DNA of 64,000 nucleotides from Gracilimonas sp. (GTDB lineage Bacteria; Bacteroidota; Rhodothermia; Balneolales; Balneolaceae), in NCBI RefSeq assembly GCF_022450045.1, contig NZ_JAKURD010000011.1; one strand, given 5' to 3'. A program made the position numbers and the translations under genes. The notes below the pieces were generated by a model. It saw nothing but the letters and a program-made list of their open reading frames with translations, searched no databases and had not been told where the DNA came from. Positions 6,749-48,343 of the stretch are shown here, piece by piece (position 1 is the first letter of the stretch; each line of letters starts with the position of its first letter).

Positions 6749-7852
6749 TCAATTCTGTTTCCAGAAAACGATTCCACCGGCCTGTTTTCCGGTTTCAACC
6801 ACATCTACCCGTTCGAGTTTCTGCAGATCTATGATCTCAACCGAGCCCGGTTCGCCTCCAATGCCTTCCACAGAAATAAACGCATAGTTATTGTCGGGAG
6901 TGATAGCCACGCCGTGGGTTACCTTTCGGCTGTTCTCGATATAGGCGAGTTCTTCCCCTTTTTCAAGATCCCAGATTCCTACAGCCCCTTCTCCTTTGTA
7001 GGTAACAACCAGGAGTTTACCATCGTGGCTTACTTCCAGGTTATATGGACCTTTGGCAGTATCAAAGCGACGGGTGATCTTCCACTTTTCGGTGTCAATT
7101 TCTATGATCTCGTTAGATCCGTTTCCGGCCACATAAACAAGTGGTTTTGTGGGATGTGGATCGGCCCAGGTTGGTTTTTCTACAGGAGAGTGATCCATGT
7201 CCGTATTTTCATGATCGATTTTAGAATGATCCATAGATCCGCCTTCACCGAGCTTAAGGGTTCGCTTCACTTCCAGCTTCCGAGCGTCTATCTCGTACAG
7301 CTCATCAGTCATCATGGAGACGTGATAAGCGACATCACCGGAAGGTCCTACCCGGGTGCCATGCGGCATTATACCGACAGGAATATCTGCTAGTCGCATC
7401 ATAGTTTCGGAATCTACGACCGAAAGGGTACTAGGCTCCATGTCACCATGAAGATTGAAGTTTACAACATAAACCATTCCGGTAGATGGGTTGTAATCCA
7501 TGCTGGCGGGAAACATCCCCAACTCAACCGAATCCACAGCCTCATTAGTCTCTGTAGAATATTTCCAAAGCTGGCCATAAGGCATTCCGTGGGCAATGGT
7601 CACAAACCAGTATTTTCCATCTGCTGAAACAGTGACTCCATGTGGACCTTCATTTTCCTGAGGCCAGGTACCTACATCTATGGTTTCTGCTATAGTACCC
7701 TTACCGGTTTCGCCATTAAAATGGATCAAGTGAACCTGATCTTCCGATTCTGCTGCTACATAAGCGTAATAATCCTGGGCATAGCTGTCAGAGATCCCAA
7801 ATAAAAGGATTCCTCCGACAACCAGTGTCCATAAAGCTCTCTTAATTATCAT
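6749..7852 (-). CDS. Secreted YVTN/YncE-type beta-propeller protein
   Basis: Signal peptide plus repeated blades (IDVGTWP...PHGVTVS, IPVGIMPHG, TAKGPYN, TGKQAGG). Confidence 0.8.
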   Translation of the reverse strand: MIIKRALWTLVVGGILLFGISDSYAQDYYAYVAAESEDQVHLIHFNGETGKGTIAETIDVGTWPQENEGPHGVTVSADGKYWFVTIAHGMPYGQLWKYSTETNEAVDSVELGMFPASMDYNPSTGMVYVVNFNLHGDMEPSTLSVVDSETMMRLADIPVGIMPHGTRVGPSGDVAYHVSMMTDELYEIDARKLEVKRTLKLGEGGSMDHSKIDHENTDMDHSPVEKPTWADPHPTKPLVYVAGNGSNEIIEIDTEKWKITRRFDTAKGPYNLEVSHDGKLLVVTYKGEGAVGIWDLEKGEELAYIENSRKVTHGVAITPDNNYAFISVEGIGGEPGSVEIIDLQKLERVDVVETGKQAGGIVFWKQN

Positions 7853-7871: not shown

Positions 7872-9860
7872 TTAATTGGTTCCTTGCTCAGGACGATCTA
7901 CTAATTTTATAGCCCAAAGGCCTGAGTTCCAGTCCGAAATAAAGATATGTCCTTTATATGGCTGAGGTCCCCAGGTAAATGGAGCATTTGGTACGATCGC
8001 GTCTGGGTGAGTCGGTTCAAATTTGGCGATCTCTCGTCCCTGATCATATAAGTTGCCCATCAATTCGCCGGAAATATCTACGATGCGAAGCCCTGCATTA
8101 TAGTAAGCAACAAACAGAAGGTCGCCGACTACCCAGAAGTTATGTGTTCCTGCTTCGGGCACCTGATAGCGTGCTACTTCTTTAGGCTGGTCCCAGCCAT
8201 CAAATTTCACAAAGTGGATCCATCCTGCAGCTGCTACTGGATTACTGCGAGTAGGGAGTCCGTAAGGGAATGACTCATCGCCGGCAATAACGTAGAAATC
8301 CCCGGTAGATTCACTTTTGAATGGGAATGCGGCATGATTTCGCCCACTAGGATAAGAGTAGCTGCCCAACATAACAGGGTTTTCAGGAGATCCGCCGGCA
8401 TCAGCTAACTCGCTGTCCTGACTTCCAATATCTACAGCAACAACGCCATCACTCCAGTTAGAAGAGTAGGCGATCCCGTCTTCGATCCAAACATCGTGGA
8501 TGGAATGACCGGGTGTGTCCAGTTCAAATCGGCCAACAGTGTAAGGATTTTCAGGATCTTCAATATTGATGATATCGTAACGGCGGCCATTATTTACGGC
8601 ATATACATGATCTTCATAAATAAAGGCATTGTGAACCCCGCCGGTTAGTCCTTCATTATATTCAGAAAGAATTTTGACATCCCGCGGATTGCTCACATCC
8701 AGAACCACCATTCCATTTTTACGGTCAGAAGCTCCTTCACGTGTGATAACGCCAATGGTTCCGTCCTCAGAGATTTTAACGTCATTAACGGTACGTGCAT
8801 CAACGCGAACGGTATCAATAGAAACGATATTTGACGGATCGGTAACGTCCCAGAAGTAGGTGTCGCCATTGGCACCCCAGGTCCCGGTGATGGCGTAATC
8901 ACGTCCATCCACACCTTCCCATATCCAAAGGTCGGATGTGTGGACATCAAGTACTTCACCATGACCTACCATTTCAACGTCTTGTGCTGCATTACGGTCT
9001 TTAACTCGGATAATTTGCTCTGCAATAGCATCGCCGGAACGGGCAGCAAGTGTAAAGATCCCCGGTTTGTTAGCAACAAATTTACCTTCCTGTGAGATCT
9101 GTCCTTCCGCCCCTTGGCCCAGATTATCTTCAGGCTGAGCAATAAAAGAGTAGGTGATAGGAACATCAACAACACGTCCATTTCCAGACATTGCTTTGGC
9201 ATTCAGCGTGATTACATCTCCGGTTCTGATATTAGTTTCACTATTTTCAATGACCATGGAAGACGCAGGATTATTCTTAATGCTAAGATCAAGCGTAGCC
9301 TTTTTTCCCTCAGATTCTGCCGTGATCTTGACTTTTCCTGGTTTAAGTGCCATAAGTTTTCCATGACTTACCATAGCTACCGACTGATTATCGCTTGTGA
9401 TGGTTAAATCGGGGTTCTCACGAATAAGATCCATTTCGTCAATTACATCTACATGTAAGTCGAGAGTAGTTTTGGAGTAAATATTTTCGGGCACATTTTT
9501 GAACTGAACTTCAGCAATTGGAGGATAAGGCACTTCAATATTAAACTGCCTGGTTACGCGCTGTTCTCTTGGTCCGGAACGCATTGCAAGGACAGAATAG
9601 GCCCCTGGTTTATTGGCTTTAACATACCCTTCACGAGACACTTCAAGATCCCCGCCGTTTCTGGAATAGAAAAGAATGGTATCGGGAAGCGTTTCACCAC
9701 CTTCATTTACCAAAGAAGCCTTTAGTTGTTGTTCTGTACCCACTTCTATAACTATGGGGTCAGGTTCAATTACAATTTTTAATGAGCTGGTATCCTGGGC
9801 AAAAGTATGTGTAGCTCCAAAAAGAACTATTACTGCCAAAAGTTTTAACGCCTTTTTCAT
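7872..9860 (-). CDS. Secreted Ig-like (Big_2) + LVIVD-repeat protein
   Basis: Signal peptide, N-terminal Ig-like repeats, then LVIVD-like repeats (MVVLDVSNP, DIINIEDPENP, LRIVDIS). Confidence 0.8.
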   Translation of the reverse strand: MKKALKLLAVIVLFGATHTFAQDTSSLKIVIEPDPIVIEVGTEQQLKASLVNEGGETLPDTILFYSRNGGDLEVSREGYVKANKPGAYSVLAMRSGPREQRVTRQFNIEVPYPPIAEVQFKNVPENIYSKTTLDLHVDVIDEMDLIRENPDLTITSDNQSVAMVSHGKLMALKPGKVKITAESEGKKATLDLSIKNNPASSMVIENSETNIRTGDVITLNAKAMSGNGRVVDVPITYSFIAQPEDNLGQGAEGQISQEGKFVANKPGIFTLAARSGDAIAEQIIRVKDRNAAQDVEMVGHGEVLDVHTSDLWIWEGVDGRDYAITGTWGANGDTYFWDVTDPSNIVSIDTVRVDARTVNDVKISEDGTIGVITREGASDRKNGMVVLDVSNPRDVKILSEYNEGLTGGVHNAFIYEDHVYAVNNGRRYDIINIEDPENPYTVGRFELDTPGHSIHDVWIEDGIAYSSNWSDGVVAVDIGSQDSELADAGGSPENPVMLGSYSYPSGRNHAAFPFKSESTGDFYVIAGDESFPYGLPTRSNPVAAAGWIHFVKFDGWDQPKEVARYQVPEAGTHNFWVVGDLLFVAYYNAGLRIVDISGELMGNLYDQGREIAKFEPTHPDAIVPNAPFTWGPQPYKGHIFISDWNSGLWAIKLVDRPEQGTN

Positions 9861-37909: not shown

Positions 37910-39214
37910 TTACAATGCACTACTTGGACCTTTTAAATCTCTTTTTTTGAATGTTAGCTCAAATAACGTTTTATCACTTTGCTCAGTAATCGATATGTAT
38001 CCTCTGAGTTGAGAATTAAGTGTTTTGACTATGAGCATTCCCAAACTGCTTGGTTTTTCCAGATTATATTTTTGACTGCTTTTTACTCCATTATCGGAAA
38101 CCGTTAAAACTACACCTTCTTCTAATTCTTTAAGGTTTACTTCTATAATTGGTTCTTTAATATCTTCGTAGAAATTTAAATAAGCATTAAGCAATAATTC
38201 ATTGCATAATAATCCGGCCGGTACCGCCTGATTGATGTTAAGGTTTACGGCGGGGATCTCTTTTTTTATTTTGACTGTACGTTTTCCATTCTCTTTATTG
38301 AATGTGTTTTGTACAAAATCTACTAACTGATTCAGGTAGTCTCCAAAGTCTATATGAGAAGTTTTTTCGGCATTTGCATATGAATCATGCACCAACGCAA
38401 GACACTTTAATCTCATCTGGCTATCGTGAAGAATAGCATGAACCTTTTCATTTTCTGTGTACATGGACTGCAGATCAAACAACGCAGATACCAATGCCAG
38501 GTTATTACGAACCCGGTGATGTATTTCAGAAAGCAGGCTTTCTTTTGCTTTTACCGACTGCTGCAATTTTTCTTCAGCTTTTTTCTGCTCAGTGATATTC
38601 TCCAGCATAACCACCAGGTATACCGGGCTCTCCGGTCCATTAAATACCGCAGACTTAGAAACCAAACCGGGAAAATAGGTTCCGTCTTTTTTACGATATC
38701 TTTTTTCTATTTTGTAAAATACTCTTTTTTGTTCTGCCAGTTCCTGATCTAATTCTCTTCCGATAGTTAAATCATCGGGATGAATAAAATCTTCAAAATT
38801 AAGTTTGAGCAGCTCTTCTTCTTTATATCCGAGCATATCGCACAGGGTTTGGTTCACCTGTATCCAGTTTTCATTAGGTTTGTGATGAGCGATGCCAACT
38901 GGCGCAGATTTAAACGTAGCCTTGAATTCATCTCTGCTTTTTGTGAGCCGATCAATGGTTTCATTTAGTACGGCATTATTTTTCCAAACCAGCAAATATA
39001 TCATCACCCCGCTTGCCAGTACAAAAAACCAACCTTTAAGGGATTGAACCCGTGTTAAAGTCTCAGGTTCATTAAAGGAAGCAAGTACAAATTGATCAGA
39101 AAACTGAACCCATAAAATTCCAACCAAAAGGTAAACGAGGGTAATGACCAGCGGACTATTATTCAGAATAGCTTTTATACGATCCATACAAAATTCCATT
39201 TTTTTGCGGAGCAA
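37910..39214 (-). CDS. Membrane sensor histidine kinase (PAS + HisKA_2)
   Basis: Two TM helices, PAS domain (FIHPDD), H-box SEIHHRVRNNL. Probable ATG at 39187. Confidence 0.88.
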   Translation of the reverse strand: MLRKKMEFCMDRIKAILNNSPLVITLVYLLVGILWVQFSDQFVLASFNEPETLTRVQSLKGWFFVLASGVMIYLLVWKNNAVLNETIDRLTKSRDEFKATFKSAPVGIAHHKPNENWIQVNQTLCDMLGYKEEELLKLNFEDFIHPDDLTIGRELDQELAEQKRVFYKIEKRYRKKDGTYFPGLVSKSAVFNGPESPVYLVVMLENITEQKKAEEKLQQSVKAKESLLSEIHHRVRNNLALVSALFDLQSMYTENEKVHAILHDSQMRLKCLALVHDSYANAEKTSHIDFGDYLNQLVDFVQNTFNKENGKRTVKIKKEIPAVNLNINQAVPAGLLCNELLLNAYLNFYEDIKEPIIEVNLKELEEGVVLTVSDNGVKSSQKYNLEKPSSLGMLIVKTLNSQLRGYISITEQSDKTLFELTFKKRDLKGPSSAL

Positions 39215-39442
39215 TTAGCCAAAAATGACGTATTTGATTTAATAAACCGTACCCGCCTTGTTAAAATGAATAACAGTGGAAAGATTCTGTATGAATAAGA
39301 TACCCAAACGTGTAATCTAAAAAACATGTGTTGCCTTCTGATAAAACCTCATAAGTATATTATTTTAAAGAGTAAGCTGCAGGTAAAATGTTACACTTTT
39401 ATTTTCGGAGTGTTTTTTGGGCTAATGCTCACATACTGCTTC

Positions 39443-39544
39443 GTTGTGGTTTGATTTTTAGATGGGATCAAGGATATTGACAAAATGAATCACTTCATAG
39501 CCTCAACAGTTGTGGTTTGATTTTTAGATGGGATCAAGGATATT
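39443..39544 (+). CRISPR. Type II-C mini-array: two identical 36-bp repeats and one 30-bp spacer
   Basis: GTTGTGGTTTGATTTTTAGATGGGATCAAGGATATT at 39443-39478 and 39509-39544. Spacer GACAAAATGAATCACTTCATAGCCTCAACA. Orientation inferred from tracrRNA pairing. Confidence 0.9.
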
Positions 39545-39737
39545 AGTTGGTTTTTTAATCTTCTGGTATTCAATCACTTAGCAAAAAATATCCTTTAAAA
39601 AAATGTGGGTTAGGCTTCTTCAATGAGGCTTCAACCGGCATTTTTTTTACTCTCAAATTTGGGCTATGCTGAATTAAATTCAGCATGACTTTAATTTCCG
39701 GGGTAATTTTGGATATACTTTCGGGCTTATAAAACCT

Positions 39738-40076
39738 TCAGAACATTTCAAGCTGAGGGGGCGGTTTTTCTACCGGCAGGCTTTTCTTTCCCCAAATATT
39801 TATGATCTTTCCATATTGCTTATCGGTCACAGAGAGAATACTTACCTGTCCTTTGGATGGAACCAGTTTTTTTATGCGTTTGATATGAACTTTCGCACTT
39901 TCGCGGCTGGCACAGTGGCGGGTATATACGGAATACTGCATCATGGAAAAACCATCCTGCAACAAATCTTTTCTAAAACGGGTAGCTTTTCGGCGTTCGA
40001 TTTTGGCAGTAACCGGGAGGTCAAAGAATACAAAGATCCACATAATCTGGTAAGCATTTAAGCGTGAATAACTCAT
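39738..40076 (-). CDS. cas2: CRISPR-associated endonuclease Cas2 (type II)
   Basis: MWIFVFFDLPV...FRKDLLQDGFSMMQYSVY...TDKQY. Confidence 0.95.
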   Translation of the reverse strand: MSYSRLNAYQIMWIFVFFDLPVTAKIERRKATRFRKDLLQDGFSMMQYSVYTRHCASRESAKVHIKRIKKLVPSKGQVSILSVTDKQYGKIINIWGKKSLPVEKPPPQLEMF

Positions 40077-40960
40077 AATACCGGATATTTTATTCGCTTG
40101 GCTTCTCCTTTATAACATCGGGCAAGTGAAGCTGTGGTTTCAGACAAGCCAACCATCAGCGGCCGTTGTTTCCGGTTGATCTTAATGTCGCAGGCCAGGC
40201 ACTGCAAAAGTTTCATTTTTAGCTCAGGCGATAATTCTTCCTCTGCTTGTCCTTCATTCATTAATTCCCAAACCAGTTGATCTACATACGGACGGTACGG
40301 TTCCATTATATCGTCCGCCAGGCAGTACGCATTGTATTTATTATGGTGATGGATTCCCAGTGTGGGCAACAGCCCGGAACCGGTAAGGGCACGTGCTACG
40401 GCAGCCCGCAGAACGGTATAACCGTAATTCAGCATATTGTTGGGTACGTTCCCGTACCTTGTACGGTTAAATTCATCCCCAAACAAGCGTGGCCAGTAAA
40501 ACCGGGCGGCACGTGCTTCCATATTTTCCGGATCTCCACTTTTAACCTGCCGGGCCATATATCGTAAAGGCTCACCGTCTTGTTCGGCTGTATCCAGCAT
40601 GGCTGCCTGGTTTCGGATTTTTGCTTTTACTGTTTGTTTCCAAAGTTGTTTTTTGAGTGGAACGGAAGATTCTACTTGCGCACGGAAGTGTTCGGTTTGA
40701 GTTTGATGATTGTCAAGGTGAAATAGCATGGAAGCTGGCAAGTGTTTTTCATTACAGAAAATAACAGCGGCATTATATTTGGCCAGCAAGCGGATGACTG
40801 CCTGGGTAAACGTGATTTGATGATGCTCAAACACCACAAATCCAATGTCTTCCACCGGTCGCTCGTTTTCCTCACCCGTTTGTTTATTTAAAATCACCAA
40901 CTGGCTGTTGTGGATTTTAAGGTGACAGGGACTATTAAAAAAGAGTGTTTTTTTAAGCAT
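40073..40960 (-). CDS. cas1: Type II CRISPR-associated endonuclease Cas1
   Basis: WKQTVKAKIRNQ, EARAARFYW, NNMLNYGYTVLR and GIHHHNKYNAYCLADDIMEPYRP motifs. Confidence 0.96.
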   Translation of the reverse strand: MLKKTLFFNSPCHLKIHNSQLVILNKQTGEENERPVEDIGFVVFEHHQITFTQAVIRLLAKYNAAVIFCNEKHLPASMLFHLDNHQTQTEHFRAQVESSVPLKKQLWKQTVKAKIRNQAAMLDTAEQDGEPLRYMARQVKSGDPENMEARAARFYWPRLFGDEFNRTRYGNVPNNMLNYGYTVLRAAVARALTGSGLLPTLGIHHHNKYNAYCLADDIMEPYRPYVDQLVWELMNEGQAEEELSPELKMKLLQCLACDIKINRKQRPLMVGLSETTASLARCYKGEAKRIKYPVL

Positions 40961-40971
40961 AACAGGTGGGT

Positions 40972-41448
40972 TTATTTCCTGTTTCGGTACTTCCTGATTT
41001 TTTGAAGTTCTTCAACATCGGCTTTGTCTTTCATCCGGCCGGTAAGCATTTTATTTTTGATTAGGTCTTCCAATTGAATAAACCTGACCTCAAGCCCGTC
41101 TTGAAACTGGTAGGGAATGCTGTTTTCAAAAGCTTCTTCAAAATGGAGTCCGGTTATGGCATTGAAAATATCTATTTGCAGCGGTTCGTCTCCAAGTTTA
41201 ACTGAAAAAGGAGAAGTGAAGTCAATTTCTTGCAGGTATTCAACAAGTTCGGTACTCAGTGTTAGTTCTTTTACAGCCCCGACCAGTTGGTCTTTATTAT
41301 TTGAATCGGGTTTTACCCAGATATCCATATCGCCGGTAGTGCGTACGTACCCATGAAAAATAACCGCATACCCGCCCGCGATAAGATAACTTACCCCGTG
41401 AGAATTAAACTCCTTTAACACCTCTGCAAAATTATTAGCCAGGATCAT
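40972..41448 (-). CDS. Pol-beta superfamily nucleotidyltransferase (DUF6036-like)
   Basis: LIAGGYAVIFHGYVRTTGDMDIWV (GG-x-A...R-x-T-x-D-x-D) and C-terminal K...GRMKDKAD. Confidence 0.8.
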   Translation of the reverse strand: MILANNFAEVLKEFNSHGVSYLIAGGYAVIFHGYVRTTGDMDIWVKPDSNNKDQLVGAVKELTLSTELVEYLQEIDFTSPFSVKLGDEPLQIDIFNAITGLHFEEAFENSIPYQFQDGLEVRFIQLEDLIKNKMLTGRMKDKADVEELQKIRKYRNRK

Positions 41449-41710
41449 AGGGGTGGGGTTTCATGATTTGGAAAGACTTGGAAATGGGAGGCCAGGTGCC
41501 ATCTTTTTTCAAATACTGATGAAATACCTGCTTACGCAGCTTCTCTACGTGTTTCAACCGCTCATGGTAAGACAGGCCTGCACTTTGTTTTGCTTCAAAC
41601 TCGGCGGCTTCCTCAAAAGAACTGAACACACGTACGGTTTTAAAGGCTGTGGAGGGTTCCTCAACTTTGCCTTTATCGCTTTTTGATGGTTTTTCTTTTT
41701 TGTTATTCAT
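41435..41710 (-). CDS. Small hypothetical protein coupled to the nucleotidyltransferase
   Basis: 91 aa, starts 5 nt after the cas9 stop and overlaps the NTase start. Low-complexity N-terminus and helical core (LSYHERLKHVEKLR). Confidence 0.65.
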   Translation of the reverse strand: MNNKKEKPSKSDKGKVEEPSTAFKTVRVFSSFEEAAEFEAKQSAGLSYHERLKHVEKLRKQVFHQYLKKDGTWPPISKSFQIMKPHPYDPG

Positions 41711-41715
41711 TGAAA

Positions 41716-44700
41716 TTAACTCACTAATGTTAGTTTCCCTGTGGCAGAAATTTCTACTTTTCTGGGATTAAATCGTCTCCATCCTGTTTTACCATTTCCA
41801 AAACTTTGGATTCTATGAAAATAAGGTTCAATTTTATTATCACGAGTAGATTCTGAAATAAGTCTGAATTCATAATATTTTGATGATAAAGTTTGAACTC
41901 TAAACAAATGTTGACTTAAAACCATATAATCATCTTCAAATTCTTTTATTTGTTCATCGGTTAATCCAAGTAAAAATAAGTCGTTTATTTGCATGGAGGT
42001 AATGATCTTATTTCCATTTGCAGGAAGTTGAATAATTGATTGATCTTGAGCTTTTCGTTCAACGGCCTCCCAAAAGGTTATCACCTGTTCTGCTATATTG
42101 CCTTCTTTATTTTCATAAATAAGGACGTGATGGTTGTTTTTGGGATTTACAAATTGATTTATCCCATCCTTCAACTGTTCTGCATTTCCAATATTTTCCT
42201 TGATACGAACCTTCTTTACGGGTATTGGGTCGCCATTTTTGTTAGGCAGATGAACTAACGGCTTTCGCTTTTTAGTTTCTTCATCAATTTCAAAAAAGGC
42301 ATTTTTAGGAACAGAATACTTTTTATTCAAATCTATTGAAGAATTAGCTCTTTTTACTGCGGCTCGAACTAATTCTCTAATTTTAGGATCTACAATTTTA
42401 TCCACTTTTGCACTGTTGTTGATAGTATCGAGTGGTTTTCTAACATGAAAGTATTCTTCTCCATTTTTATCTTCATGTTTACCATACACGGTATCCTGAT
42501 GCAGTTGTCCTCTTGCAGCCATACCTTCTGCAAAAAGCCTTTTGCCATTTTTTGTTTTCGGTTTACCGTTGTAGTCAAAAAGTTGTTTTTTAACTTTGGT
42601 AAGTACCCGGTCTGTTTTTTTGTGAGAAACTAAAATCCGGTTAACAGCAAGGTTTGCATCCTGCCAGAAATTATCCCAGGGCAAATCAACAGACTTTTCT
42701 TTTTTGATTTTCCAATTATCCCATCCTTTTGCAGAAAGTGTTGATATTTGCTGCAGGTATTTTCTTTCAGAACAAGCCACTGTTAAAGCATCAATGGCAT
42801 GGTGGCGATGATCGTCTCTTTCTTTAAAGGGATAAAGGGTACCATCTTTTACATTGCCTTGAATAAATTGCCCTTTTTTCTCCAGTGTTTTTTGGTCTTT
42901 CTTTAGCGTTTCTTTATTCCAGGGTAAAAGTCCTGCTACATTATCTTCTGCATCAATCGCCGCTAAATATTCGCCGTCTTCAACATCTCCAACTTCATAG
43001 AAATCATTAAGGATTCCGTCTAATCCCCAAAAATGCCTCAACATGGAAGTTACCGTACCTTGTGCAACAGTAACTTTAGGGCAGGCGTGTTTCAAGTACG
43101 TTTTGGCAATTTTAGAGATGTACCGGGTATCATTTAACTGCCTTTCGATAAAACCTTCTGCATCGGGTTTCTTTTTACTAATAAAGCGGCGGTATTTCGG
43201 ATTGTTCTTTTTGAAAAGACGGTAAGCTCTTTGCTTCATTTTATCCCATTCGGAAGTGCCTCCAAATGCCTGATAGGGTGTAAGGTTTCCTTTCTCCTGA
43301 TTTTTATAAGCAAGGCAAAGCGTCTTGTTTTGCAGGCCATTATCTAAAGAAACACTATATGGTATGATGTGTTCTACTTGCACATATCCCTCATCAAATA
43401 ATTCAGTGAGGCCTATTTTTTCGCCGGTGAAAGGACAAATACCTTCACATTCTTCCCAAAGCAAAACTTTCTGAATGTTTGAACGGGTATGCTTGATGCC
43501 ATATTCATCCAATCGGGCTTTAATTCGAATATTTTCAGCTTCTCTTTCCTGTTGGCGGTCACGAATTCTGTCGCGATGTTTTTTTGAGGATTTAAGTTCT
43601 CTTGCTAATTCTATTCTTATTTCATCCGGTGCTCCATATTCTTCAATAATAGAATTAACAACGGTACGAAGCTCGAACAGGGTTTGCTGAACAATTGGGT
43701 TTCGAATAGTATCCGGTGAAGGCAACTTACCTTCCAGTTCAACCTCTTTTTCCAAACTATGGTGGTACAGCTTATCCGCTTTGTTTTTTGGGAGGGCAAA
43801 TTTTTCAACAAGCAGTTCTTTGATTTTATCTACAATCTTTCCTTCTGTGTGGTTTGAGATAATATTGAGCACGTCCTTTTCAATATCTGTTTTTTTCTCC
43901 TGCCCCATTTCATCCCAGGCTTTTGAACCAAAAGCAGCCCGAAGGCCTCCCAGTAAAACAGCTTTATCGTAAATAAAACCTTTCTTTAAATAGGGAAGAA
44001 TATTCAGAATGGCTTTACGGCTCAGATTGGCATAGCCGTCTTTCAAAGTAAAAGACTTAAATTTTTCAATCTCATCAGGATATAATTCCCACTTTTCTTC
44101 TGCATATCTATCCAGCCAATCAGGATCATCAGCCGTTAATTTTATATGCCAGATATCTTCCTGTTCCTTCAGACTTAATTCATGCCATCGTTCTTTTCCG
44201 AATATTTTTTGAAAGCTTGCGATTGTTCTGTTGCCAGGCAGTTTATCTTTGTCTTTATAGTTATAGTTGCCATCGGGGCGGGAAAGTTTTGTTCTAAGTG
44301 TTTTAAATGGAAATGCTTTGTCTTTAGAATTAAAAACTTCCAGAGCTATTTTTCGATCCTCTTCATTGAGTGGTTGTTCCCCATCAAGAATGCTGTTGAT
44401 AGTTTGATAGGTTCTAAATAATTCGAATGGAATAGCTGAAAGCTGACATCTTGGCTTATTTGTTTCAAAAGAACAATTACCAATTAGGTGTTTTTGAGAA
44501 CGTAAGGGGCGCTGATAAAATAATATTCCATCTTTTGTATCACCTCTGCGTTTACTTCCACCAATTTTTATTCTAAGATCTTCCGTAAAGATTTCAGGAT
44601 AAAATTCTTTTTGGTGTTCCCAGATTATTTCAAACTCTTCCTCGTACATGGATCGAAGAGTGTATCTGTTTCTTAAACGTTTTTTATGGGAGTCTTCATG

Positions 44701-45318
44701 GTGCAGGTAATTTCCAAGTGTCCCATATTCCTCTATTTTTTCCTTGGTTTCATTAATACCTGTTTTTCCTTCCTTTGGTTTTCCCTCATACAAAGCACCA
44801 GAATCTTCATCCTGATTTTGCAGCGTTTCTTTATATCCTCTTCTCTGCGCAAAGTGATAAAAAATTCTTCCGATTTCATGAAAGGATAGCTTTTCCCCTT
44901 TGTATGCTTTTGACCTGGCTTTATAGGGATCAATAGTAAAAAAAGATCTGAGCGCGATAGGCAGTTCCTTTTCTCTAATAACTGTTTGAAATTTCCCTCT
45001 GAATTTTTCTTCAGAAACGTTATTTCCGGTCAGTTTTTTATAGACACTATCTATGTCCGGGAACATTCCATGTTTAATGAGAAGATGGGTAAGCTTTTCT
45101 TTCCTCAATTTCGTTCGAAAGTTTTGCCTTCGAATTTGGCGTTTTTCACGACGGGTAGCGTTTTTGGATTCCTCTTTAGTTCCTTTTTCAAGATTAATTC
45201 CCATTGGAAAAATTCTTGATCCTATTCCTGGAATCATTCCTCTTTCATTATCTAATTCTATAACCGACCAGCCAATAGAGTTTGTACCCAAATCCAATCC
45301 CAATATTCTTTTACTCAT
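41716..45318 (-). CDS. cas9: Type II-C CRISPR-associated endonuclease Cas9 (1200 aa)
   Basis: RuvC-I LGLDLGTNSIG, Arg-rich bridge helix, RuvC-II IELARE, HNH VEHIIPYS...NKTL...NQEKGN, RuvC-III DHRHHAIDA. No csn2 or cas4 in the locus. Confidence 0.97.
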   Translation of the reverse strand: MSKRILGLDLGTNSIGWSVIELDNERGMIPGIGSRIFPMGINLEKGTKEESKNATRREKRQIRRQNFRTKLRKEKLTHLLIKHGMFPDIDSVYKKLTGNNVSEEKFRGKFQTVIREKELPIALRSFFTIDPYKARSKAYKGEKLSFHEIGRIFYHFAQRRGYKETLQNQDEDSGALYEGKPKEGKTGINETKEKIEEYGTLGNYLHHEDSHKKRLRNRYTLRSMYEEEFEIIWEHQKEFYPEIFTEDLRIKIGGSKRRGDTKDGILFYQRPLRSQKHLIGNCSFETNKPRCQLSAIPFELFRTYQTINSILDGEQPLNEEDRKIALEVFNSKDKAFPFKTLRTKLSRPDGNYNYKDKDKLPGNRTIASFQKIFGKERWHELSLKEQEDIWHIKLTADDPDWLDRYAEEKWELYPDEIEKFKSFTLKDGYANLSRKAILNILPYLKKGFIYDKAVLLGGLRAAFGSKAWDEMGQEKKTDIEKDVLNIISNHTEGKIVDKIKELLVEKFALPKNKADKLYHHSLEKEVELEGKLPSPDTIRNPIVQQTLFELRTVVNSIIEEYGAPDEIRIELARELKSSKKHRDRIRDRQQEREAENIRIKARLDEYGIKHTRSNIQKVLLWEECEGICPFTGEKIGLTELFDEGYVQVEHIIPYSVSLDNGLQNKTLCLAYKNQEKGNLTPYQAFGGTSEWDKMKQRAYRLFKKNNPKYRRFISKKKPDAEGFIERQLNDTRYISKIAKTYLKHACPKVTVAQGTVTSMLRHFWGLDGILNDFYEVGDVEDGEYLAAIDAEDNVAGLLPWNKETLKKDQKTLEKKGQFIQGNVKDGTLYPFKERDDHRHHAIDALTVACSERKYLQQISTLSAKGWDNWKIKKEKSVDLPWDNFWQDANLAVNRILVSHKKTDRVLTKVKKQLFDYNGKPKTKNGKRLFAEGMAARGQLHQDTVYGKHEDKNGEEYFHVRKPLDTINNSAKVDKIVDPKIRELVRAAVKRANSSIDLNKKYSVPKNAFFEIDEETKKRKPLVHLPNKNGDPIPVKKVRIKENIGNAEQLKDGINQFVNPKNNHHVLIYENKEGNIAEQVITFWEAVERKAQDQSIIQLPANGNKIITSMQINDLFLLGLTDEQIKEFEDDYMVLSQHLFRVQTLSSKYYEFRLISESTRDNKIEPYFHRIQSFGNGKTGWRRFNPRKVEISATGKLTLVS

Positions 45319-45351
45319 GACAATCTGATTTTAGTTGATAGTCTATGTTAT

Positions 45352-45383
45352 TTTGTGATATCAAAAAAAAATGGTTACAATTG
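45352..45383 (+). promoter_or_regulatory. Probable tracrRNA promoter (-33 TTTG, -7 TACAATTG)
   Basis: TTTG at 45352-45355, 20-nt spacer, then TACAATTG (one mismatch to TAnnTTTG) just upstream of the anti-repeat. Confidence 0.45.
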
Positions 45384-45389
45384 TCTCAT

Positions 45390-45478
45390 AAGAAACCATC
45401 TAAATTTCTTATCACAATAAGGCTATATGCCGAAGGCTTTTGCCTATGAGTCCCGCGTACTCCGTGGGACTTTTTTTT
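45390..45478 (+). ncRNA. tracrRNA
   Basis: Anti-repeat CCATCTAAA...ATCACAAT (45396-45418) pairs with repeat TTTAGATGG and GTTGTGGT. Followed by nexus AAGGCTATATGCCG and terminator hairpin GTCCCGCG...CGTGGGAC-T8. Confidence 0.88.
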
Positions 45479-45565
45479 GTCCAATAACTTCTAATTAAAC
45501 TCTTTAGTTATTGAAAATCAAACTGATGTAGATAGATTAAGGAATTAAACTTTTCATATACAAGA

Positions 45566-46030
45566 ATGGAAACACAAAAGTGCATAGAGAAACTTTACAC
45601 TGCTCTCCAGGATCTGGATGCAGAAACAATGATTAGTTGCTACCACCCTGAGGCAACATTTGAAGATCCGGTATTCGAGCTGAGTTCAAAAAAAGAAATA
45701 GCAGGAATGTGGACCATGCTCTGCAAAAGAGCGAAGGAATTTGAATTCCATTTTGATCAGGTTTGGGCCGATGAGGAAAAAGGAAAAGCCCGGCTGAAAG
45801 CGAAGTACTTATTTTCTAAGACAAACCGGATGGTCTATAACAACATTAACGCCCGGTTCAAATTCAAAGACGGCCTGATCATTGAACACATTGACTCCTT
45901 TAATTTCTGGAGATGGAGCCGGCAGGCATTGGGTTTTCCGGGGATTTTATTGGGATGGACTTCATTTTTTCAAAAGAAAGTACAGCGGAAGGCATACAAA
46001 AATATGAAGGTTTATATCCCTAGCGACTAA
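45566..46030 (+). CDS. NTF2/SnoaL-like family protein
   Basis: YHPEATFEDPVF...FKFKDGLIIEHIDSFNFWRW. Confidence 0.85.
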   Translation: METQKCIEKLYTALQDLDAETMISCYHPEATFEDPVFELSSKKEIAGMWTMLCKRAKEFEFHFDQVWADEEKGKARLKAKYLFSKTNRMVYNNINARFKFKDGLIIEHIDSFNFWRWSRQALGFPGILLGWTSFFQKKVQRKAYKNMKVYIPSD

Positions 46031-46098
46031 GCAGGAACATTGAATGTTTTAGAGGTTATAATTGTATCTATTATCAAACGCAGAACAAACAGACGATT

Positions 46099-46773
46099 AT
46101 GCCATATACACTTCAGATCTTAGATATCGACAACGTAACTCATGATGTAAGACAAGTTACCCTTGAAAAGCCGGAAGGCTATGAATTTGAACCCGGCCAG
46201 GCCACTGAGGTAGCGATTGACAAAGAAGGATGGAGAGAAGAAAAACGCCCATTTACATTTACTTCTTTGAATGAAGAAGAACATCTCGAATTCACGATCA
46301 AGATCTATCCGGAACATGGTGGTGTGACCGAACAGATCGGTAAACTGAAAAAAGGAGACAAGCTGATCATTGATGAACCCTGGGGAACGATACAGTATAA
46401 AGGGGAAGGGGTATTTTTAGCCGGAGGTGCCGGAGTTACCCCCTTCATTGCTATCCTCAGAGACCTTCACAAAAAAGGTGAGATCGGTAATAACAAGCTC
46501 ATATTTTCTAATAAAACGGAAAAAGACATCATCCTGAAGAATGAATTTGAGGATATGCTGGGTGATAACTTCATCAACGCCATTACGGATGAAGATCCGG
46601 AAGGCGATCATATTTTCCTGGATGGTTTTGTAGATAAGGAATTTCTGCAATCTCAGATCGACGACTTTGATCAGCCGTTTTATGTATGCGGCCCCGGCCC
46701 CTTCAATGAATCCATGATGAAGTATCTGAAAGAACTGGGAGCCGATCCTGATGCTTTGGTCTTTGAAGAGTAG
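46099..46773 (+). CDS. FNR-like FAD/NAD(P)-binding oxidoreductase (flavodoxin reductase-like)
   Basis: RPFTFTS, FLAGGAGVTPF, FYVCGP and C-terminal FEE. Confidence 0.88.
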   Translation: MPYTLQILDIDNVTHDVRQVTLEKPEGYEFEPGQATEVAIDKEGWREEKRPFTFTSLNEEEHLEFTIKIYPEHGGVTEQIGKLKKGDKLIIDEPWGTIQYKGEGVFLAGGAGVTPFIAILRDLHKKGEIGNNKLIFSNKTEKDIILKNEFEDMLGDNFINAITDEDPEGDHIFLDGFVDKEFLQSQIDDFDQPFYVCGPGPFNESMMKYLKELGADPDALVFEE

Positions 46774-46872
46774 GAGTCATATTTTAGGGCAAATGCCGGA
46801 TGTATCTTTCCATATTGCCTAAGGCAAGTCTTAAAAGCTGTTTTTTAAGATGGTTTAGAACTGGTCCATATT

Positions 46873-47067
46873 TAACCTGAGTTCGAGATAAAAACTAAGT
46901 TAAAAGGATAAAAATGGATGCTTTTGGTCATTCCCGTGGAGACGGGAATCTAATGGCTGCCATGAATTCGGTATTCGCTACCTGACCAGCCATAGGATTT
47001 CGGGCATTCGCCGCGAAATGACCGTTCAACGTACTCAAGAGATGGTCTTTATATCGAATTCACGGTA
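46873..47067. mobile_element. MITE family A, full copy
   Basis: TIRs TAACCTGAGTTCGAGATAA and TTATATCGAATTCACGGTA. Body almost identical to 23130-23324. Confidence 0.8.
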
Positions 47068-47073
47068 TTTAAT

Positions 47074-47294
47074 TAGCGTGAGTTCGGGATAAAGAATGTT
47101 TCTAAAAGAATTATAAAACAACTATGAAATCCATCTGACGGATGCCCCGCCTGATGGATGAAACAGGCTGAGATAATTTAATAGGCAAAAAGTACTTTTA
47201 AGGTTAGGTGCCCAAATCAAACAAACGGTCAGATGGACTTGGAGCCATCCGGCCGTGCCTCGGAGGCTTTGACGAGGATAATTATCTCGAACAC
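47074..47294. mobile_element. MITE family B copy (same TIR, different hairpin cargo)
   Basis: TAGCGTGAGTTCGGGATAA left end, GAATGTTTCTAAAAGAATT as at 37361, two hairpins, partial right TIR TTATCTCGAACAC. Confidence 0.7.
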
Positions 47295-47419
47295 TTTTTG
47301 GTTTCTCTACAAATTTTTTCATATCTGTTTTATATAAATAATTGTTAATTATATTTCTACGTATAAATCCAAAAGGATGACCATTTGCTCGGTTTTACGT
47401 ATGTTCATTCAAAAATTAA

Positions 47420-48343
47420 ATGACACACGGCACACACAACGCGGTTCATGATCCGCGGAACGAGAATGTTCTCATTTACATCAATGGAGAATTATTTCCC
47501 AGGGCTGAAGCTAAGATATCCGTATTTGACAGCGGGTATTTAGTTGGTGATGGGGTTTGGGAAGGATTCCGCCTTCATAAAGGTGTGCTTGTATTCCTTA
47601 AAGAACATTATGACCGGTTATATCAGGGAGCTAAAACCATAGGCATGGATCTGAATATAACCCGTCAAGAGATCACAGAGGCTATTTGGGAAACACTGGA
47701 AGCCAATAAGATGAAGGACGGTGTCCATGTTCGCCTGATGTTTACCCGAGGCATAAAAAAGACCCCTTCTCAAGACCCAAGATTGACGATATCCGGTCCG
47801 AATTTGGTGATCATTGCCGAGTATAAACAGGCCGATCCTAAGAGCAGAGACCGTGGGGTGACACTATTTACCAGCACCATTCGCCGCGGTTCACCTGATT
47901 ATCTTGATCCCCGTTTGAACTGCCACAGTAAGATTCATGAAGTGCAGGCATTGGTTCAAGCTATCGAAGCCGGTGCGGATGAAGCATTGATGCTGGATGT
48001 GAACGGTTTTGTGTCAACTTGCAATGCAACCAACTTTTTTATGGTTAAAGGGGATGAAGTATGGACTTCCACCGGGCAGTATTGTATGAATGGCATTACC
48101 CGTGGCAAGGTGATCGAGATCTGTGAGAAATCGGGCTTCACATGCCGGCAAAAGAATTTTTCACTGTTTGATGTATATGGAGCTGATGAGGCATTTGTAA
48201 CCGGAAGTTTTGGAGGGCTGACTCCCGTGACTACGATTGATGGGAGAACCATTTCAGGATCTGTATCCGGTGCCATGACTCAAAAGCTACAACAGTTGTA
48301 TGAAAAAGAAATTGAACATGCTGTACAGAAAAAAAAGGTATAG
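47420..48343 (+). CDS. Class IV PLP-dependent aminotransferase-like protein (atypical active site)
   Basis: KISVFDSGYLVGDGVWEG, AGADEALMLD, GITRGKV and ADEAFVTGS motifs. Confidence 0.85.
   Translation: MTHGTHNAVHDPRNENVLIYINGELFPRAEAKISVFDSGYLVGDGVWEGFRLHKGVLVFLKEHYDRLYQGAKTIGMDLNITRQEITEAIWETLEANKMKDGVHVRLMFTRGIKKTPSQDPRLTISGPNLVIIAEYKQADPKSRDRGVTLFTSTIRRGSPDYLDPRLNCHSKIHEVQALVQAIEAGADEALMLDVNGFVSTCNATNFFMVKGDEVWTSTGQYCMNGITRGKVIEICEKSGFTCRQKNFSLFDVYGADEAFVTGSFGGLTPVTTIDGRTISGSVSGAMTQKLQQLYEKEIEHAVQKKKV

Follow-up and report, generated by a model that had tools for sequence, protein, structure and literature searches.

A stretch of 64,000 nucleotides from Gracilimonas sp. (Bacteroidota, Balneolaceae; assembly GCF_022450045.1, contig NZ_JAKURD010000011.1; hereafter the window) carries a pair of small genes between cas9 and cas1 of a type II-C CRISPR system. 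With moderate confidence, we read this pair as a toxin-antitoxin (TA) or abortive-infection cassette similar to MenAT1, belonging to a lineage that is habitually embedded in type II-C operons and coupled to Cas9 through the antitoxin. The first gene of the pair (41435-41710, minus strand) encodes a protein of 91 amino acids, a putative antitoxin or adaptor from a family without a name, and the second (40972-41448, minus strand) a nucleotidyltransferase (NTase) of 158 amino acids that belongs to DUF6036/DUF2204, is similar to the toxin MenT1 and is itself a putative toxin. On the minus strand cas9 is followed, after a gap of 5 nucleotides, by the open reading frame (ORF) of the 91-amino-acid protein, which overlaps the NTase gene by 14 nucleotides; 11 nucleotides separate the latter from cas1, and cas1 overlaps cas2 by 4 nucleotides. 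From cas9 to cas1 the order and spacings are exactly those given in the original prediction for this locus.

The nucleotidyltransferase and its small partner

The NTase scores above the Pfam gathering cut-offs for both DUF2204 (35.8 bits, cut-off 20.3) and DUF6036 (26.6 bits, cut-off 23.6), labels that its database homologues share, with more than 800 database proteins matching. Relatives are encoded in at least 580 stretches of the genome collection, the best 80 of which come nearly all from Bacteroidota and their relatives. When the AlphaFold 2 (AF2) model of the protein (predicted local distance difference test, pLDDT, 87; predicted template modelling score, pTM, 0.84) was searched with Foldseek, the top match was MenT1 (8an5_B, E 3.6e-5, probability 1.0, template modelling (TM) score 0.67), with 8an4, likewise a MenT1 entry, and 8rr5 also matching, TM1012 next and then ANT(2'')-Ia. 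MenT1 is a toxin of Mycobacterium tuberculosis that modifies transfer RNA (tRNA), and its antitoxin MenA1, a two-helix protein of 68 amino acids, blocks it and induces auto-phosphorylation of its Thr39 (PMC10435456, PMC11375011). The NTase family profile also retrieves MenT1 (Rv0078A) from sequence (E 0.0033), and in the resulting alignment the GG, the DxD and the C-terminal K..R..D..D helix line up, with T38 opposite T39 of MenT1.

The motif GGYA (residues 25-28) ... RTTGDMD (36-42) of the window NTase is invariant across the family, Thr38 included; that the pol-beta motif is intact had been pointed out in the original prediction. Across 78 sequences G25-G26 and D40/D42 vary little or not at all and match the GG and DVD of MenT1, while K133, R138, D141 and D144, conserved to the same degree, align with MenT1 KLLA....RRPQDRSDL; D76, whose assignment as motif III is tentative, is found in 70 of the 78. 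Every cas-linked copy has kept the catalytic residues, and the ratio of nonsynonymous to synonymous substitution rates (dN/dS) of the window gene against a 92% relative, 0.375, denotes purifying selection. Sequence and model together place the protein among the pol-beta-fold enzymes of the MenT/AbiEii superfamily, in its DUF6036/DUF2204 branch. No NTase relative was found in phage records or in a scan of IMG/VR, and the PHROG matches are weak, the best (22.9 bits, E 1e-4) being to a family of unknown function, so that these three sources gave no evidence of carriage of the cassette by phages.

Searches of Pfam, NCBIfam, PADLOC and the PDB matched nothing to the 91-amino-acid protein. Its AF2 model (pLDDT 79) predicts a disordered N-terminus rich in Lys and Glu followed by a two-helix hairpin at residues 32-62, and its dN/dS of 0.17 against the 92% relative again denotes purifying selection. 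Word-index searches with this protein gave only 4 and 7 matches; the family was exposed by the ORFs upstream of NTases in the fetched loci and by a full HMMER scan, in which 259 representative clusters match at E<=1e-3. The best 150 of these 259 are stand-alone proteins of 57-139 amino acids, save one of 320, and the core common to the family is F-x-S-F-E-E ... (S/T)-P-x-E-R-(L/I) ... L-I-x-x-V-Y.

Neighbourhoods were compared (fetched loci are designated by L numbers throughout) in the 80 best loci, taken at species level, that the NTase retrieved, 56 of which are well flanked, with at least 1.5 kb upstream and at least 1 kb downstream. Nearly every NTase in the 80 loci is directly preceded by an ORF of 56-105 amino acids, mostly with an ATGA overlap of 4 nucleotides, and a hidden Markov model (HMM) of the small protein recognised a homologue directly upstream of 76 of the 77 intact NTase genes, which come from different species. 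The sole NTase without an upstream partner is also without Asp76. Because the partner stands directly upstream in 76 of 77 loci we regard the two genes as an obligate cassette. The tree of the NTase is in agreement with that of the small protein (Mantel rho 0.35, p 0.018), a weak test made on neighbour-joining trees of short proteins. Tight coupling, co-evolution and an intact enzyme that hardly ever stands without its upstream partner are the pattern expected of a toxin and its antitoxin, and suggest such a pair rather than prove it. Locus L080 has the small domain joined to an antitoxin of the MNT type, adjoining a HEPN-type protein. The proposal that the genes form a cassette of the MenT/AbiE kind, for TA or abortive infection, is sustained by the MenT1 fold match, the intact active site and the obligate upstream partner. 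A few cassettes are plasmid-borne and some lie beside other defence genes. A stand-alone cassette by a DEAD-box helicase, a BrxC/BrxD-like ATPase and a TerB-domain protein (L094-L098, 5630-10483) has the look of a defence island.

Recurrence in type II-C operons and fusion to Cas9

Thirteen of the 80 loci lie inside type II-C operons, 10 of them among the 56 well-flanked ones (about 18%). Two further loci of this kind are P0118 (Saprospiraceae, more than 20 contigs) and P0007, and three more cassettes are bordered by cas remnants. The hosts are Cytophagales, Chitinophagales, Saprospiraceae, Bacteroidales and Balneolaceae-like genomes, and the Cas9s of the cas-linked loci are 22-52% identical to one another. 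The link to cas9 and cas1 noticed in the window is not a one-off: at least 16 other type II-C loci, whose Cas9s are highly divergent, show it as well. Cas-linked cassettes are always co-oriented with the cas genes and usually stand immediately upstream of cas1, overlapping it by 4 nucleotides in L026, L035 and L046; in L048 the cassette is upstream of cas9 instead.

In nine loci (L026, L028, L035, L046, L052, L056, L058, L073 and L089) the ORF directly before the NTase gene is cas9, and the last ~70 residues of Cas9 are the small protein. The full-length fused Cas9s measure 1548-1735 amino acids, cas9 being cut by the contig end in L026, L046 and L056. The small domain scores 27-66 bits in eight of the nine and weakly, 9.0 bits, in L056, with E-values of 1.6e-16 to 5.4e-8 in six fused loci (Z = 1e6). 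When the proteins are aligned, the nearest unfused Cas9s stop at the conserved ...VDRLGNI... motif and the fused ones add a short linker and the small domain; the tail of the L073 Cas9 shares 54% identity with a small protein that stands alone in another species. L035, one of the fused cases, belongs to a cultured strain whose genome is complete, Algoriphagus halophytocola TR-M5. In L011 (6598-6606) cas9 (1670 amino acids) and the small ORF share a reading frame with just one TAA between them, an arrangement that may be a recent split of a fusion or may stand one step short of one. In the window itself the small-protein HMM gave no match on Cas9, which means that here Cas9 is without the C-terminal small domain.

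The cassette and Cas9 trees, neighbour-joining trees to be read with care, are discordant: the cassettes of L028 and L035 are sisters although their Cas9s belong to different deep clades, and the L073 cassette is sister to that of L080, whose small domain joins an MNT-type nucleotidyltransferase instead of Cas9. This discordance suggests that attachment to the 3' ends of cas9 genes occurred, or was transferred, more than once. From the fusions we infer a physical coupling of Cas9 to the NTase through the antitoxin domain. In the fused-Cas9 locus L089-L093 (Saprospiraceae), found on many contigs from different samples, a gene for an HNH-domain protein of 185 amino acids follows cas2 (6816-7373).

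A model of the cassette and its coupling to Cas9

By homology to MenT1, the NTase would most likely extend tRNAs at their 3' CCA ends with added nucleotides and thereby halt translation. The 91-amino-acid partner would most likely neutralise it by covering the active site, by triggering auto-phosphorylation of Thr38 in the manner of MenA1 on MenT1 Thr39, or by both. The cassette would be autonomous in most genomes and would have been absorbed repeatedly into the type II-C operons of Bacteroidota, where the toxin would be tied to Cas9 through the antitoxin, which in many of these loci appears as a C-terminal extension of Cas9. In the fused form, truncation, loss or destruction of Cas9 would take the antitoxin away and free the toxin. 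Such a release would serve as a form of addiction or as a safeguard, or else as a reserve route to abortive infection. In the window, where the antitoxin has a separate gene 5 nucleotides after cas9, coupling would amount at most to co-expression and possibly to binding, and the cassette would mainly shield itself and its immediate neighbourhood from deletion. The stronger proposal, which we offer only tentatively, is that in many type II-C systems of Bacteroidota Cas9 carries the antitoxin, either tethered or, in the window, encoded right after it, so that truncation, loss, proteolysis or anti-CRISPR capture of Cas9 would release a MenT-like tRNA-modifying toxin and arrest the cell, making the system a class 2 counterpart of CreTA at the level of proteins, as a guard of Cas9 or its reserve in abortive infection.

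Weighing the alternatives

Several results weigh against the reading of a MenAT1-like cassette coupled to Cas9. The majority of the cassettes, roughly four fifths, lie outside CRISPR loci. In a second sample, 80 metagenomic type II-C loci fetched with Cas1 as query (Cas1 48-68% identical to that of the window), no locus had an intact cassette next to cas1; 78 were without any trace of it and two held remnants, an NTase fragment before DUF4258/DUF2283 TA pairs in one and a small-protein ORF before an IS200-like transposase gene and tandem repeats in the other. Because none of these 80 loci has it intact, the cassette must be considered a rare accessory, and its association with type II-C is enriched, yet neither predominant nor required. 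The NTase did not match Pfam PF08843 (AbiEii/DUF1814) at E<=1, and its AbiEii match in PADLOC is weak and partial (E 0.006, 13.5 bits, residues 32-63 only); given the lack of a PF08843 match we have filed it as a structural and distant-sequence relative of MenT/AbiEii, not as a member of DUF1814. For the small protein, neither Foldseek nor profile searches returned a match, be it to MenA1 or to any solved structure. Cas9 and Cas1 trees are incongruent too, and the trees and Mantel tests are in general weak for the reason given above. Finally, toxicity, neutralisation, substrate and contact between Cas9 and the NTase are all inferred.

The same observations bear on what we regard as the most serious alternative, although in our view a less likely one, in which the cassette is a passenger: a selfish TA pair lodged in an insertion-tolerant and deletion-prone spot between cas9 and cas1, without any interplay with CRISPR, the fusions being cas9 genes that lost their stop codon and were kept for the antitoxin. 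The predominance of cassettes outside cas loci, with some in defence islands and on plasmids, favours it, as do the absence of intact cassettes from the Cas1-fetched loci and the displaced cassette of L048. So does what else is found in the gap. In L080 (4953-9546) the space between cas9 and cas1 holds a HEPN-type NTase_sub_bind protein, the fusion of an MNT nucleotidyltransferase to the small domain and a DUF6036 NTase, and then a DUF6155 protein, a second pair of small protein and NTase, and an ATPase of the ATPase_2 family. This last gene (8413-9546, in the NTase-cas1 gap) has a relative of the same family in L016 (7704-9007), between the NTase gene and a 25-residue N-terminal remnant of cas1. 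Genes for IS200/Y1-like transposases, perhaps associated with repetitive extragenic palindromic (REP) sequences, lie between the NTase gene and cas1 in L012 (7722-8306) and L028 (7532-8185). L118 (50-2581) has an NTase fragment, two DUF2283 genes (one with DUF4258, TA-like) and a Cys-rich ORF of 264 amino acids directly upstream of a type II cas1, and L169 (464-2145) a small ORF, an IS200/Y1-transposase-like gene and ~1 kb of tandem repeats, the NTase being missing. The presence of other TA pairs, IS200-like genes and ATPases in the same gap makes the cas9-cas1 junction fit an insertion-tolerant spot, one that gathers selfish elements in general, and this also counts against a dedicated coupling to Cas9.

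The fate of the cassette when cas genes decay speaks for a passenger as well. The closest stand-alone relatives of the window cassette are relics of CRISPR loci. In a Balneolaceae metagenome-assembled genome, DLM2.Bin24 (L001, 7751-8770, the same as L009; LGT-DUF5995 site), the cassette is intact with an NTase 74% identical to that of the window, whereas cas9 and cas2 are gone, cas1 is reduced to its first ~10 codons plus residues 124-168, and a homologous leader and one degenerate repeat are retained. At the same chromosomal site in L179 (6739-7700) the pair is intact with an NTase 84% identical, cas9 and cas2 are gone too and only three cas1 codons are left, and fragments of cas1 or cas2 are also present in L016 and L021. 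These relics indicate that the cassette outlives the cas genes and does not need them, and that the unfused cassette failed to prevent the loss of cas9, cas1 and cas2, a further point against the reading that we favour.

Against a mere passenger stands the frequency of cassettes in type II-C operons, 10 of 56 where a rough estimate for a random gene gives ~1 in 10,000. The cas-linked copies are, moreover, always co-oriented and mostly coupled translationally to cas1, and for nine in-frame fusions on Cas9s of different deep clades the chance loss of stop codons alone hardly suffices. The original prediction had reasoned that homologous pairs scattered over many contexts and only sporadically next to cas genes, together with a lack of toxicity, of any effect on interference or acquisition and of interaction with Cas proteins, would indicate a passenger insertion. 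With about four fifths of the cassettes in non-CRISPR surroundings and a trace of the cassette in only about 1-2% of the type II-C loci sampled, that outcome was in part what we found.

An improbable alternative is that the NTase is a dedicated CRISPR enzyme, tethered by the small domain at the PAM-interacting (protospacer-adjacent-motif-interacting) end of Cas9 and translated together with Cas1, that tails or protects the 3' ends of prespacers, CRISPR RNAs (crRNAs) or trans-activating CRISPR RNAs (tracrRNAs), or that bridges Cas9 to Cas1-Cas2 in the acquisition step of type II-C systems, where Csn2 and Cas4 are missing. The fixed place immediately upstream of cas1 with its 4-nucleotide overlaps, the fusion of the partner to the Cas9 C-terminus and the intact active site would agree with such an enzyme, but most cassettes are without a CRISPR neighbour, they stay intact after cas loss, nearly all type II-C loci do without them, and the nearest structural relative is a toxin that targets tRNA. 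A role in modifying crRNA or tracrRNA had been among the suggestions of the original prediction, and beyond the position of the genes nothing was found to speak for it.

Reversed or non-toxic roles, with the NTase protecting the cell from a harmful small protein, much like MntA in its pairing with HepT, or with the NTase acting as a small-molecule transferase like ANT(2'')-Ia, find some echo in a weak Pfam match to Aminoglyc_resit (E 0.011), in the ANT(2'')-Ia structural matches and in the antitoxin function of NTases in HEPN-MNT systems (PMC3632139), but are very improbable in view of the better matches to MenT1 and of a small protein that is a 60-amino-acid helical hairpin without enzymatic motif, encoded upstream like most antitoxins and occurring in fusions with Cas9 and with an MNT antitoxin, unlikely places for a toxin.

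The CRISPR locus of the window

The genes surrounding the cassette are those of a complete type II-C system, to judge from sequence, with the two additional genes between cas9 and cas1. All on the minus strand, cas9 (41716-45318, 1200 amino acids) matches TIGR01865 at 620 bits together with HNH_4 and RuvC_III, the type II cas1 (40073-40960, 295 amino acids) matches TIGR03639 cas1_NMENI at 308 bits, and cas2 (39738-40076, 112 amino acids) matches TIGR01573 at 71 bits. With these three genes, a repeat array and a candidate tracrRNA bearing an anti-repeat, the locus has what defines a type II system of this kind, and it is typed as II-C because csn2 and cas4 are missing. Like canonical type II-C loci, such as that of Neisseria meningitidis, it has the order cas9-cas1-cas2, an array of 36-nucleotide GTTGT... 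repeats read in the reverse sense to these genes, and a candidate tracrRNA whose nexus is CAAUAAGGC; the window differs from them in the two extra genes.

Two other origins of these extra genes were rejected. Insertion by an insertion sequence (IS) or transposon finds no trace in terminal repeats, as only short matches at chance level flank the pair, in agreement with the original prediction that no IS ends are visible, nor in any break of composition, the G+C content of the two genes being unremarkable. An artefact of ORF calling is discarded since both genes are conserved, are under purifying selection and occur in many assemblies. Among contigs of four related marine runs there was no variant with cas9 joined straight to cas1, and hence no natural deletion to mark the limits of the unit. 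Synonymous divergence between the window (39738-45318) and L005 (4105-9711) is uneven along the operon, at 0.85 for cas1, 0.48 for cas2, 0.29 for the small ORF, 0.16 for cas9 and 0.095 for the NTase gene, which suggests that the adaptation genes were swapped by recombination between otherwise close strains.

The array as assembled (39443-39544, plus strand) consists of two identical repeats of 36 nucleotides (GTTGTGGTTTGATTTTTAGATGGGATCAAGGATATT) and one spacer of 30 nucleotides, and the leader occupies about 39545-39737, between array and cas2. Relatives whose proteins are 92-94% identical have 41-43 copies of the same repeat at the same syntenic site. A Logan contig from the run that holds the window has the array reduced to a single repeat, 39442 being joined to 39509, and a second, related run has different spacers beside the repeat. 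Because of these three observations the shortness of the array is doubtful, and its two repeats may be a collapse of the assembly. The nearly empty array of the original prediction is thus correct for the sequence as assembled and may be wrong for the organism. The idea that the cassette stabilises a near-empty array falls with the many repeats of the relatives and with the relic that kept the cassette while cas9, cas1 and cas2 were lost. A repeat search detected no ectopic repeat copy outside the array at 38800-47500, and a search of the whole window allowing up to 6 substitutions found the two array repeats and no others.

Divergent from cas9 lies a good candidate for the tracrRNA (45384-45480, plus strand). 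It combines an anti-repeat with a nexus-like hairpin and a strong terminator, in which a hairpin runs into a stretch of U. Read by eye, the anti-repeat, at about 45394-45418, matches the repeat's 5' portion by base pairing in 19 of 23 positions, and the nexus-like hairpin is AAGGCUAUAUGCCG, of the form CAAUAAGGC...GCCG. A promoter-like site lies at 45353-45381 and a terminator-like site at 45448-45472, and the fold of the candidate has a z of -4.4. An Rfam scan of the window matched no family, the candidate tracrRNA included.

Relation to known systems and significance

Taken singly, the parts of the proposed system are of known kinds: an NTase toxin of the MenT/AbiE type, its small antitoxin and type II-C CRISPR. 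MenAT1 of M. tuberculosis (Rv0078B/Rv0078A) is the closest of the known systems in its architecture, a small upstream protein (68 amino acids in MenA1; 91 here, ~60 of them ordered) before an NTase of the pol-beta fold of 160-190 amino acids. It provides the top structure (TM 0.67), with GG, DxD and K..R..D..D aligned and Thr38 opposite MenT1 Thr39 (PMC11375011), and its partner has two helices, as predicted here (PMC10435456). It differs in that identity is ~20%, the NTase here belongs to DUF6036/DUF2204 and not to DUF1814, the partner has no detectable homology to MenA1, and the cassette occurs mainly in Bacteroidota and their relatives; embedding in a cas operon and an antitoxin fused to Cas9 are known for no MenAT.

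CreTA, CreR and CrePA resemble the proposed system in placing a toxin module within a cas locus, where neutralisation would hinge on the effector and loss of the effector would free the toxin (PMC9458426, PMC10097628, PMC12737573). In those modules, however, the antitoxin is a crRNA-like RNA that directs the Cas effector, Cascade in the case of CreTA, to shut down the toxin gene. Here the two parts are both proteins, their link to Cas9 is proposed to be covalent fusion or binding, and the host system is class 2, type II-C. A module of the CreTA type was rejected for the window, as both components are proteins and an ectopic crRNA-like repeat was not found there.

The HEPN-MNT modules (HepT-MntA, type VII TA) likewise consist of two small adjoining genes, with a minimal pol-beta NTase as one of the two, and are frequent in defence settings; the cas9-cas1 gap of L080 contains such a pair, in which the MNT carries the small domain as a fusion. 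In those modules the NTase is the antitoxin and is encoded upstream, whereas the window NTase is of another family, with a C-terminal motif of the MenT type, and has no HEPN partner. No Rx4-6H motif is visible in the 91-amino-acid translation. Identity with HEPN-MNT was rejected on the grounds that the partner lacks this motif and any Pfam match and has a two-helix model, and that the NTase motif is GGYA and not GS; the original prediction had likewise noted the absence of a HEPN partner.

Coupling of toxins to immunity is in itself an old and general idea (PMC3632139; for CreTA, PMC9458426 and PMC10097628). For a DUF6036 cassette in cas9 operons and for an antitoxin-like domain fused to Cas9, we found no earlier description in the literature covered. 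Searches on DUF6036, DUF2204 and AbiEii or NTase toxins with Cas9 returned no account of this arrangement in a coverage that mostly lay outside subscription journals, and a 2025 review of TA-CRISPR coupling contains no Cas9-linked or NTase-based case.

The toxin modules so far described as making cells dependent on their CRISPR effector are RNA-based Cre modules, CreTA belonging to type I, and there is none for Cas9 in the literature covered. A protein antitoxin fused to Cas9 would, if our proposal is true, be a new wiring of adaptive immunity to growth arrest, and it could explain the upkeep of costly cas9 genes. It would also give a function to DUF6036/DUF2204 and to the unnamed small family, and extend the MenT-type tRNA toxins to Bacteroidota. 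Should the cassette be a mere passenger, the data would still show the cas9-cas1 junction to be a collecting point for selfish TA modules that outlive the cas genes around them.

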